28,659 nt of DNA, taken from positions 1 to 28,659 of the forward strand of contig CAZBZN010000008.1 in the NCBI GenBank assembly GCA_964496415.1, in the 5' to 3' direction. The notes below the pieces were generated by a model, which was not told the origin of the DNA, ran no database searches, and saw nothing but the letters and a program-made list of their open reading frames with translations. Within the stretch, counting starts at the first letter, position 1, and each line of letters opens with the position of its first letter. This stretch comes from Candidatus Micrarchaeota archaeon. GTDB lineage: Archaea; B1Sed10-29; JAJRYS01. Shown piece after piece: positions 21,240 through 23,690 of the stretch. The position numbers were made by a program, and so were the translations under genes.

Positions 21240-22451
21240 ATGAAAGCCAGTATTGTAATAATATTACTTATCCTTACTGCTGCAAACGCAACCATAAACA
21301 TAATTTCCCCAAATCAAGAGACCTACTATCAGGGAGAAGAAATAAAATTCATTGGTAACGTTTTCTCAGATGAATGCTACGGTGAAATAAGCTTTTATGT
21401 TGATGGAAAAAAAATAGCAGAAGGAACAACAACACAAAAAGGATACTTTTCATTTGAAACAATAACAAATTCAAGCTTAACAATGAAAGCAGAAGAACTT
21501 AATCTCGGACAGCATGTATTCAAAGTAAGCTCTGAATGTTATGGTGAAGCAGAAACAACTTTTCAAACAACAAACAACCTAAAAGTAAACTATGAAATAG
21601 TTCCAGTAAAAGCAATGACAGGAGATGTTATTAGAATTTCAGCTTATGGTTACAAAAAAGGTGAAAAAGTAAAAGCAAGCATAACAATAAACAACAACAC
21701 ATTTGAAAGCCCTTTATCTACTTTTTTCCAACAAAAAGGAGAATACACAGTAAAGATAAATTCAATAGACGAGTATGGTAATTCAGGACAAGCAATAGCA
21801 ACAATAACCATTTACGATGCTTTAACAGTGAATGCTTCAACAGACAAAAAAACATATTTTCCAGGAGATGAAGTAAAGGTATTTGTTACTGCTTATGATG
21901 TTTTCGGAAACCAAAGAACAGGAAAAGTAATAATAAACTGGTTTGGTGAAAACAAAACTCCTGACTTACTAAAAATTCCAAGCAATGCAAAAGGAAACTA
22001 CACTATAAAACTCTGGTTCTTTAACGGTTCAAACAAAGGTGAAACACAACTAAGCTTTAACGTAATGAGCTTTCCAATAATTAAAAAAATCATAATAAAA
22101 GACAAAAAGCTAAAAGTAGTAAGCTCTGACCAGACAGGAGAGCCATACAACGAACAACTAGAACTAAACATATTCGACTCCTATGGAAATCTCTTAATGG
22201 AAAAACCAATAGACCCTAACAAAGAAATAACATTCAACGACCAGCTTCTCCCAGACCAATACTCTGTAATAATAAAAGCATATGGGAAAACAATATACAA
22301 CAAGACTTATTTCAAAAACCAAACCAAAGACAATCCCCTGGCAAAAACAGGTTTGGTTATTGCAAAACAAAGAACAACCTTAGCAGCAGGAATAATAATC
22401 ATCATTCTAACAGCAATAGCTTTATGGATAAACAAAAAGCAAGAAAAATGA
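21240..22451 (+). CDS. Membrane-anchored Ig-like repeat surface protein
   Basis: Signal peptide, TYYQGEEI / TDKKTYFPGDEV (MG2-like) motifs, C-terminal TM + basic tail. Confidence 0.8.
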   Translation: MKASIVIILLILTAANATINIISPNQETYYQGEEIKFIGNVFSDECYGEISFYVDGKKIAEGTTTQKGYFSFETITNSSLTMKAEELNLGQHVFKVSSECYGEAETTFQTTNNLKVNYEIVPVKAMTGDVIRISAYGYKKGEKVKASITINNNTFESPLSTFFQQKGEYTVKINSIDEYGNSGQAIATITIYDALTVNASTDKKTYFPGDEVKVFVTAYDVFGNQRTGKVIINWFGENKTPDLLKIPSNAKGNYTIKLWFFNGSNKGETQLSFNVMSFPIIKKIIIKDKKLKVVSSDQTGEPYNEQLELNIFDSYGNLLMEKPIDPNKEITFNDQLLPDQYSVIIKAYGKTIYNKTYFKNQTKDNPLAKTGLVIAKQRTTLAAGIIIIILTAIALWINKKQEK

Positions 22452-22569
22452 CAAAAGCCTCAGACCGTCCGTCAATCCTCATTTATTTTTCAGGAAATGC
22501 TGATCATCATCGGCTTGATATTATTTTAAATAACATCTTATTTAAAACATAATCAAAAAGCAGCATATC

Positions 22570-22577
22570 TTTATAAG
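22570..22577 (+). promoter_or_regulatory. TATA box of the tRNA-iMet gene
   Basis: TTTATAAG ending ~25 nt before 22601-22603, where the leader copy of AGCGGGG begins. Confidence 0.6.
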
Positions 22578-22616
22578 TATCAACTTACAAAATAATTTAA
22601 ACAGCGGGGACACCAT

Positions 22617-22723
22617 AGCGACTTGTTGATCAAATTGTTCAACAAGCTATAAGGGTAGGGCAGCCAGGAGTGCCCGTCGGGCTCATAACCCGAAGGTCAG
22701 AGGTTCAAATCCTCTCCCCGCTA
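22617..22723 (+). tRNA. Initiator tRNA-Met(CAT) with a 32-nt intron (22621-22652) at acceptor-stem position 4/5
   Basis: Spliced AGCG|GGG TA GGGC AGCCAGGAGT GCCC G TCGGG CTCATAA CCCGA AGGTC AGAGG TTCAAAT CCTCT CCCCGCT A; A1:U72 and three G-C anticodon-stem pairs; canonical BHB at the junctions; CCA not encoded. Confidence 0.9.
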
Positions 22724-23026
22724 CTATTTTTTGAAATAATAAAAACATCTTTTACATATTCTTCTTTCAACAAATGTCACACCTTCTGCTTCAAGTAATT
22801 GTTTTTTCTTTTTAACCCCTCCTGGGCCTGAATAGCCTCCTAAGCAACCGTTCTTTTGAACCACTCTATGGCATGGAACAAATGGAGCATAGGGGTTCTT
22901 CTTCATAAGCCAAGCAACTTTTCGAGCATTAACTCCAACAGCCTTTCCGAGTTCTGAATAGGAAACGACTTTTCCTTTTGGAATCTTGCATGTTAAGTAA
23001 TAAACGCTTGCAGTTACTTTATTCAT
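22724..23026 (-). CDS. ogt: O6-methylguanine-DNA methyltransferase (single-domain MGMT)
   Basis: IPKGKVVSYSEL, active-site PCHRVV, LGGYSG..KKQLLEAEG; start MNKVT after SD GGTGA. Confidence 0.9.
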   Translation of the reverse strand: MNKVTASVYYLTCKIPKGKVVSYSELGKAVGVNARKVAWLMKKNPYAPFVPCHRVVQKNGCLGGYSGPGGVKKKKQLLEAEGVTFVERRICKRCFYYFKK

Positions 23027-23027
23027 T

Positions 23028-23690
23028 TCATTCACCAGAAGCTTCAAGAAAATCAAGGGCTTTGTCAAGATTAGGTGAAAAAGGAATAGAATCAAGCAGT
23101 TTTCGTACTTCTTCATTGCTTATGATTACTTCTAAAAGTTTTTCAAAAAGCTCTTTGTCATATTCTTTGAATGGAAGTGAGTAAAGTTTTATCCTTATTT
23201 CATCTCTAAGGCTTGGTGACTCATAACACATCAGCAAATTAGCTAATTCTAATCCAAAGTTTTCAGTTTTTGTTTGCCTAAACCATTTATGCATTATTGT
23301 TACTGCATCTAAGTTTATTTCAGGTATTGCTGGGAATTTTAACAATATTTTGCTTGGCTTTAAGTAAAAGAAATTAACCTGGTATAATTCAGTTAATTTT
23401 CTTGGTTTTTTCTTAACATTAGCTTTTTTCAGATAGTATGACAAAAGCTTTCTTGACTTATTAAACAACAAATCCCGATGCAAATATTTTACAATAAACT
23501 GCTTTTTGCATAATTTTTCTAAAAATTTTTTTCTTAAAAACTTGACCACAAGTTTGTCAGGAGTCTTTGGGTAAAATTCAGGATATAGAGCTTTTAAGTA
23601 CCTGACTATTTCAATTGGTGTTCTTGGGATAGGATTTGAGCAAAATTCAACTATTTTTTGTTCAATTTCAAGTGTTTTTTCTTCTTGCAT
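23028..23690 (-). CDS. Hypothetical basic protein, possible N-terminal wHTH
   Basis: 220-aa ORF ending 1 nt before the ogt start; helix pattern KIVEFC..TPIEIVRYL..FLEKLCKKQFI. Confidence 0.65.
   Translation of the reverse strand: MQEEKTLEIEQKIVEFCSNPIPRTPIEIVRYLKALYPEFYPKTPDKLVVKFLRKKFLEKLCKKQFIVKYLHRDLLFNKSRKLLSYYLKKANVKKKPRKLTELYQVNFFYLKPSKILLKFPAIPEINLDAVTIMHKWFRQTKTENFGLELANLLMCYESPSLRDEIRIKLYSLPFKEYDKELFEKLLEVIISNEEVRKLLDSIPFSPNLDKALDFLEASGE

Follow-up and report, generated by a model that had tools for sequence, protein, structure and literature searches.

An archaeal initiator tRNA gene with an intron between positions 4 and 5 and a leader copy of the acceptor strand proposed to aid its splicing

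The stretch of DNA analyzed here (the window) comprises the 28,659 nucleotides of contig CAZBZN010000008.1 (contig C8) of a Candidatus Micrarchaeota archaeon (assembly GCA_964496415.1), which belongs to a 687-kb archaeal assembly with 36% G+C that is distributed over 41 contigs and is 91% complete. It carries an initiator tRNA gene, tRNA-Met(CAT), in which the 5′ strand of the acceptor stem, AGCGGGG, is interrupted by an intron between tRNA positions 4 and 5 and is preceded by a second copy of the same seven bases in the leader. The genome containing the window is designated G000; other G labels denote compared genomes and L labels compared loci. A single TATA-like box precedes a 121-nt stretch of one strand that contains the leader copy, the exons, and the intron without a break. 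The parts of the gene, including those that build the bulge-helix-bulge (BHB) splice motif, are the following.

22570..22577, plus strand: TATA-like box TTTATAAG, a probable promoter judged from its sequence, with the start of transcription predicted a few bases 5′ of 22603.
22603..22609, plus strand: upstream (distal) copy of AGCGGGG, the proposed surrogate strand or clamp, with 22716-22722 as its partner.
22610..22616, plus strand: leader spacer ACACCAT, assigned from sequence, folding, and comparison of the BHB motif across loci; its ACC (22612-14) pairs with G6, G7, and U8 as the outer BHB helix, and its AT (22615-16) is half of the central helix.
22617..22620, plus strand: 5′ exon AGCG, tRNA positions 1-4, of which the first two (A1 and G2) are paired to intron bases and the last two (C3 and G4) belong to the 5′ bulge.
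22621..22652, plus strand: 32-nt intron at 4/5; it contains the 8-bp inner helix, supplies CTAT to the central helix as its 3′ strand, and contributes AA to the 3′ bulge.
22653..22723, plus strand: 3′ exon GGGTAGGGCAGCC..., tRNA positions 5-73, matched by the Rfam tRNA model (45.2 bits) and by ARAGORN; the anticodon CAT is at 22684-22686 and the discriminator A at 22723.
22716..22722, plus strand: 3′ acceptor strand CCCCGCT, proposed to be the partner of the upstream copy first and of the restored true strand later.
22727..22732, plus strand: run of six T following CTA, four bases past the discriminator, a probable transcription stop; archaeal terminators are oligo-T runs.

The splice motif has the 3-4-3 geometry of a BHB with helices on both sides (hBHBh′). 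The outer helix is formed by ACC (22612-14) and GGT (22654-56) and the central helix by ATAG (22615-18) and CTAT (22647-50), the bulges are CGA (22619-21) and AAG (22651-53), and the inner helix pairs 22622-29 with 22639-46 over 8 bp. Five bases of this motif are contributed by the leader. The cut in an archaeal BHB falls after the second base of each bulge, and deletion of 22621-22652 in silico indeed led ARAGORN to call a full tRNA-Met(CAT) at 22617-22724, with AGCGGGG opposite CCCCGCT. From the unspliced gene, ARAGORN detects only 22654-22724 and Rfam only 22653-22718 (model positions 5-66). An earlier note on this DNA, made from the sequence alone, had given coordinates for the copy, the helices, and the bulges, all of which proved correct when the sequence was rechecked. 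Its placement of the intron at 4/5, with a leader-dependent BHB and these cut sites, is upheld by the presence of the motif, by the splicing in silico to a full tRNA-Met, and by the recurrence of the arrangement at all 10 loci described below.

The identity of the tRNA was read from its CAU anticodon, its A1:U72 pair, and the three G-C pairs that close the anticodon stem; we take the latter two features to be marks of an initiator. Among the 30 best-ranked matches, the initiator genes of relatives are 82 to 95% identical to the exon. Motifs of 3-4-3 geometry are by themselves common, with 19 instances on the plus strand of the window versus a mean of 11.5 in 20 shuffles under our own thresholds. 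It is the exact recreation of AGCGGGG across from CCCCGCT that goes beyond chance, together with the recurrence of the design elsewhere. On sequence grounds, the intron is real and of the known BHB kind, at an unusual position and in an essential tRNA.

If the gene were dead, or the interruption an assembly artifact, a working initiator tRNA would be encoded elsewhere. The assembly, 91% complete and in 41 contigs, could be missing a second gene, and the contigs of the independent DNA run X2 (one of four runs whose contigs were compared) break inside the region and leave 22549-22668 uncovered. Against this, the 91%-complete assembly yielded no further initiator-like gene, and a contig from X1, a DNA run that may be the source sample, spans 22450-22696 with zero differences from the window. 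The same architecture is, moreover, present at nine other loci, where the tRNA bodies are intact and compensatory changes are seen, so that a dead gene or an artifact is barely credible. The genome also encodes the enzymes expected to process such a transcript, namely, the splicing endonuclease EndA (PF01974, 113 bits) and the ligase RtcB (PF01139, 576 bits), as well as RNase P RNA (145 bits). The latter is also present in G210, G229, and G444 and was not found in G004 (90% complete).

Contigs of other organisms in the vent metagenome runs X1, X2, and X4 align to the exon from 22653 on, and AGCG ends their unaligned part. The presence of AGCG directly before the aligned exon indicates that these are uninterrupted initiator genes of co-occurring archaea.

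The initiator genes of 60 relatives were compared, and in most of them the 5′ end is uninterrupted. The 4/5 intron was found at 10 loci: in G000, in G004 of the same family, in the metagenome contig L185, and in seven genomes of another lineage outside the phylum (G210, G229, G426, G427, G428, G429, and G444, which the search tool labels "same domain"). A relaxed pattern run over 401 genomes gave no further true case and only two false matches, both within coding sequence. For G001, G003, G005, G015, and G016 (67 to 87% complete), a 10-letter anticodon-arm pattern gave 18 matches, and none of the 12 that were read is an initiator gene. A 15-letter pattern was unspecific on the collections of genome and metagenome contigs, L185 being the sole tRNA among the loci returned.

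The splice motif is preserved throughout this set. All 10 loci have four of four pairs in the central helix, the bulges CGA and AAG, and at least two pairs in the outer helix. Nine loci have T-A as the pair made by leader base −1; G004 has C-G instead, a double compensatory change. Leader base −2 makes an A-T, G-T, or G-C pair, depending on the locus. The introns measure 15 to 34 nt, and their interiors are unrelated.

The upstream copy accompanies the intron at each of these loci. It has the form AG[CT]GGG(N), lies 5 to 16 nt 5′ of the true A1, and pairs with six or seven of the seven bases of the 3′ strand, while the proximal strand, once spliced, is a perfect AGCGGGG in 10/10. Only 2 of the 39 initiator genes without the 4/5 intron have a copy. 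One is L011 (G038), where GGCGGG lies 19 nt upstream with a run of six pairing bases, the sole control flagged by the script within 45 nt. The other is L020 (G048), an uninterrupted initiator gene whose first 13 bases are partially repeated in tandem just before it, with two differences; it entered the count though the script had anchored on this tandem copy. No true equivalent was seen upstream of 30 other tRNA hits in G000, where the one flagged case is an alignment start rather than a true 5′ end. Between G000, G004, and L185, no recognizable similarity is left in the surrounding leader, the spacer, or the intron interior, yet the copy has been retained. The spare strand is, by this comparison of sequences, conserved and tied to the presence of the intron.

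The pairing between the copy and the 3′ strand continues into A73 and the trailer for a further 3 to 6 bp in 9 of the 10 intron loci, and at least three such leader:trailer pairs next to the 5′ end occur in none of the 39 intron-less controls. The extension is achieved in different ways. In G004 it is AAU/AUU within UUGAAU/AUUUAA (6 bp), and the bases preceding the two copies of this locus are unrelated; in L185 it is AGU/ACU, and in the other lineage it is GGU/ACC, extending up to AAUGGU/ACCAUU. In alignment A1, the −1:73 pair is U-A in 9/10, the −2:74 pair is G-C in eight and A-U in one, and the −3:75 pair is G-C in seven and A-U in three, with none unpaired. The covariation score of this alignment is 0.135 versus 0.088 in shuffles and was matched by 6 of 500 shuffles, which is modest support, given the relatedness of the sequences and the small number of lineages that they represent. 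The absence of the extension from all 39 intron-less genes is the plainer control.

While the gene, its motif, the copy, their conservation, and the helix covariation are read from the sequences themselves, the competition between strands and the tethering of the 5′ piece were modeled. None of 200 shuffles folds as stably as the 132-nt precursor (z = −4.2). In the minimum-energy structure of the precursor, CCCCGCU is bound by the upstream AGCGGGG rather than by the split true strand. The predicted pair probability of the outer and central BHB helices of the window is 0.40 to 0.65 with the copy versus 0.03 to 0.09 in modeled transcripts that begin immediately 3′ of it, where the split true strand takes over the pairing with CCCCGCU. 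For L185, the predicted probability of the exact motif is 0.146 with the copy and 0.013 without it. The proposal of the earlier note that the upstream AGCGGGG acts as a stand-in acceptor strand for CCCCGCT thus gains support from three sides, namely, its presence in 10/10 versus 2/39 genes, the covarying extension in 9/10, and this approximately 10-fold modeled gain in the splice-motif helices of the window and L185.

The same models suggest a function for the copy beyond those of the earlier note. Across the 10 loci, the cleaved 5′ piece is predicted to bind the tRNA body with −11 to −17 kcal/mol when it includes the leader and the copy and with +0.4 to −6.2 kcal/mol when the copy is left out, the binding being weaker without it in 10/10. 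The modeled gain in tethering is 4.5 to 12.5 kcal/mol, with values of −11.3 versus −4.3 kcal/mol for the window. Since the 5′ piece contains only four bases of the tRNA and binds better with the copy, the copy plausibly tethers this short exon piece after cleavage and holds the exon pieces together for the ligase.

The minimum-energy fold could also be taken to mean that the upstream copy is itself the true mature 5′ strand. All of the extra sequence would then lie between positions 7 and 8, and the 46-nt segment 22610-22655 (or an equivalent register) would be removed as a 7/8 intron or by two nested excisions; AGCGGGGTAGG would likewise result from a junction of 22609 with 22656. No 3-4-3 motif was found at these junctions in the registers tried by hand, which do not amount to an exhaustive computed scan, and the conserved BHB sets the cuts at 4/5. 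The sequences of the relatives also speak against such a removal, given that the seventh base of the copy is unable to pair with C66 in 7 of the 10 loci and that G004 has a T at position 3, whereas splicing gives all 10 a perfect AGCGGGG in the proximal strand. We therefore consider the removal of the 46-nt segment very improbable. A nested second intron, whose excision from the once-spliced RNA would take out the 14 bases that separate the copies, was also considered and rejected; it had no 3-4-3 motif in the registers tried by hand, again not an exhaustive scan.

Taken together, the sequences and the models argue that this is probably a functional initiator tRNA gene of a small DPANN-type archaeon with a BHB intron at 4/5, in which the leader copy serves as a stand-in acceptor strand that aids splicing. 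Because only four tRNA bases precede the intron, the splice motif must draw on five bases of the leader and on the intron's 3′ end, in addition to tRNA bases 1-2 and 6-8. A motif built in this manner would leave CCCCGCU free to disrupt it, and this would be why the leader carries a second AGCGGGG.

We infer the following course of maturation, from the start of transcription through cleavage, ligation, and strand exchange, in which splicing precedes 5′ trimming. In the primary transcript, the copy would pair with CCCCGCU to form a stand-in acceptor stem, giving a precursor that resembles a cloverleaf with an extra arm, the BHB, between the acceptor stem and the D arm. The splicing endonuclease would cut after G22620 and A22652, the 18-nt 5′ piece would be retained on the body through the stand-in stem, and RtcB would ligate G4 to G5. 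The restored true strand would then displace the copy, and RNase P would trim the leader at 22616/22617.

Several observations weigh against the stand-in strand and this course of events. A search for RNA runs containing this DNA returned none. Independent cases are few, since just two lineages supply the 10 loci and four of these loci have almost the same sequence, and the window is the only one of the 10 without the helix extension into the trailer. In G004, the predicted probability of the exact BHB is approximately 1e−5 with or without the copy, because a competing register is favored. For spliced RNA in which the trailer is present, the model favors the upstream copy in 10/10 loci. After trimming at A73, the true strand wins in 7/10 but still loses in the window (0.12) and in G444 (0.07); strand exchange in the window is thus not predicted to be spontaneous, and it may require 3′ trimming, tertiary folding, or a protein. 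Two further points concern the origin of the copy. In the intron-less gene of G424, GGT abuts the true 5′ end, so that part of the GGU/ACC extension may be inherited rather than selected, and in the window the copy is located at the expected ancestral 5′ end, a position compatible with a relic.

This last point rests on the promoter. The TATA-like box begins 33 nt before the upstream copy, and of the 19 other G000 tRNA genes inspected, 7 have a TATA-like motif that starts 30 to 38 nt ahead of their mature 5′ end, and 12 showed none. The copy thus sits at the spacing normal for a mature 5′ end. This makes plausible the claim of the earlier note that the copy lies at the predicted transcription start, as it fits a transcript that begins just before the copy, and it fits an ancestral 5′ end as well.

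The copy might accordingly be a mere relic beside a real intron, with no role in maturation. It would be either the original 5′ end, left behind when a cassette (spacer, new AGCG, intron, and GGG) entered between positions 7 and 8, or a leftover of duplication or integration. In addition to the promoter distance, the partial upstream copies before the intron-less initiator genes L020 and L011 and the GGT leader placed directly at the true 5′ end in G424 are in line with this explanation, and mobile-element integration is described as leaving tRNA fragments upstream of tRNA genes in the accessible part of PMC3293823. A relic does not readily account for the retention of the copy in 10/10 loci while leader, spacer, and intron interior diverged in G000, G004, and L185, nor for complementarity that runs past the duplicated bases into the trailer (9/10 loci versus 0/39 controls, with 6 bp in G004).

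The family of G210 bears on the same question, as it contains genes with and without the intron. Of 30 loci returned for this family, 12 were readable at the 5′ end, the other 18 lacking a contiguous D-arm motif. The copy is present in all six genes with the intron, and an intact copy is present in none of the six without it; three leader:trailer pairs occur in just one of these six intron-less genes. In G396 (L325), a decayed copy, AGCGAGG (GGTAGCGAGG), lies about 30 nt upstream of the gene and is followed by the spacer remnant CTACC, right before an intron-less AGCGGGG. Judged by these remnants, it looks like a precise loss of the intron followed by decay of the copy, and G396 is the sole gene that has apparently lost the intron. 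The decay there argues against a relic and suggests that intron and copy are gained and lost together. The GGT of G424 may represent, on its sequence, either the ancestral state or a deletion between two repeats. A copy with no role in maturation is, on balance, unlikely. An origin as a relic is compatible with a present function, and the stand-in acceptor strand remains the reading that we prefer.

The initiator genes of the relatives contain further inserts. L300 (G229), L309 (G426), and L312 (G429) carry four inserts of about 22, 34, 29 to 31, and 29 to 30 nt besides the 4/5 intron, which amounts to five intervening sequences, and L310 (G427) resembles these five-insert genes. A maximum of three introns per tRNA gene was stated in 2011 in the accessible part of PMC3239211. 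In the initiator tRNA of L185, at 430-480 of this contig, the anticodon stem is followed by a second insert of about 32 nt, and a C instead of T occupies anticodon-loop position 33 (CCCATAA). In G004 (L030), a second intron at or near 37/38 is modeled as a helix flanked by a 6-by-6 internal loop and not as a strict 3-4-3 motif. This loose motif, as modeled, suggests an endonuclease of relaxed specificity in its family.

Other tRNA genes of G000, on contigs C1, C5, C9, C12, C25, C26, and C27, are also interrupted, many with introns in the D-loop or T-loop and some with two. These genes are only partially detected by ARAGORN and Rfam.

The open reading frames (ORFs) flanking the initiator gene were searched for a homing-endonuclease gene, and none was found in them. 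One encodes a 403-amino-acid protein with a weak Ig-like match under the Pfam cut-off. The other, at 22727-23116 on the minus strand, encodes a methylguanine-DNA-methyltransferase-like protein of 130 amino acids (PF01035, 87 bits). This convergent ORF terminates one base past the tRNA discriminator, so that the T-run terminator of the tRNA sits within its last codons.

The intron can be compared with known disrupted tRNA genes. BHB introns occur at many noncanonical positions and, "in an extreme case," at 3/4 in Thermoproteales, according to the available text of PMC4090602, which cites Sugahara et al. 2008. Like this 3/4 intron, as described there, the intron of the window is defined by a BHB for protein splicing and lies in the 5′ strand of the acceptor stem, a location that obliges the flanking leader to join the splice motif. 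It differs in its position at 4/5, in interrupting the initiator tRNA, and in its DPANN-type hosts. Introns near gene ends are also accommodated by tRNAscan-SE 2.0, which extends candidates by 60 nt of flank (PMC8450103, in the portion available). The small DPANN genomes of ARMAN-2 and Micrarchaeota likewise have many tRNA introns at noncanonical positions, such as 53/54 and 59/60; the acceptor stem, the leader, and the initiator are not mentioned in the accessible part of that report (PMC3239211).

The split tRNA genes of Nanoarchaeum equitans and Caldivirga carry complementary leader and trailer sequences (PMC4090602 and PMC4033280, both in their available parts). In these systems, pairing outside the mature tRNA holds two exon pieces for the endonuclease and the ligase and is later discarded, and the models predict a comparable role for the copy here. 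In contrast to split tRNAs, as far as those texts describe them, the window encodes a single transcript, not the two that define trans-splicing. Furthermore, the helper helix does not flank the BHB but joins the leader to the tRNA's own 3′ acceptor strand, and to the trailer where the extension is present, in imitation of an acceptor stem, and it would later have to yield to the true strand. In the permuted tRNA genes of Cyanidioschyzon merolae and of the Thermofilum pendens initiator, splicing comes before the ends are formed by RNase P and tRNase Z, as the same two sources relate in those parts, and a similar order would apply here. The gene of the window is not permuted, however, and the order would be forced by the leader-dependent BHB and the stand-in strand. 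No description of a spare acceptor strand was found in the literature searched, much of it in partial text and with Sugahara et al. 2008 outside its coverage, and the helper element is probably undescribed.

More tentatively, and with the odds slightly against it, leader-encoded spare acceptor strands might constitute a general and undescribed class of cis-acting helpers in the maturation of archaeal tRNAs. Any intron whose motif borrows the first strand of the tRNA would then need a stand-in to occupy the 3′ strand and to tether the tiny 5′ exon, and the order of splicing, 3′ trimming, strand exchange, and cleavage by RNase P would be forced. The stand-in would be the ancestral 5′ end, kept when a cassette with an exon mimic was inserted and decaying after intron loss as in G396.

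For the organism, the initiator tRNA is indispensable, and its supply would hinge on splicing that precedes 5′ maturation. This splicing seems to need an RNA element that is invisible to standard annotation, in which ARAGORN and Rfam report a truncated gene. If the proposal is true, the spare strand would explain how introns survive in the acceptor stem, a place in which splicing and tRNA folding make rival demands on one set of bases. It would further offer a simple, testable rule for locating hidden tRNA genes and a natural example of a programmed RNA strand swap during maturation.
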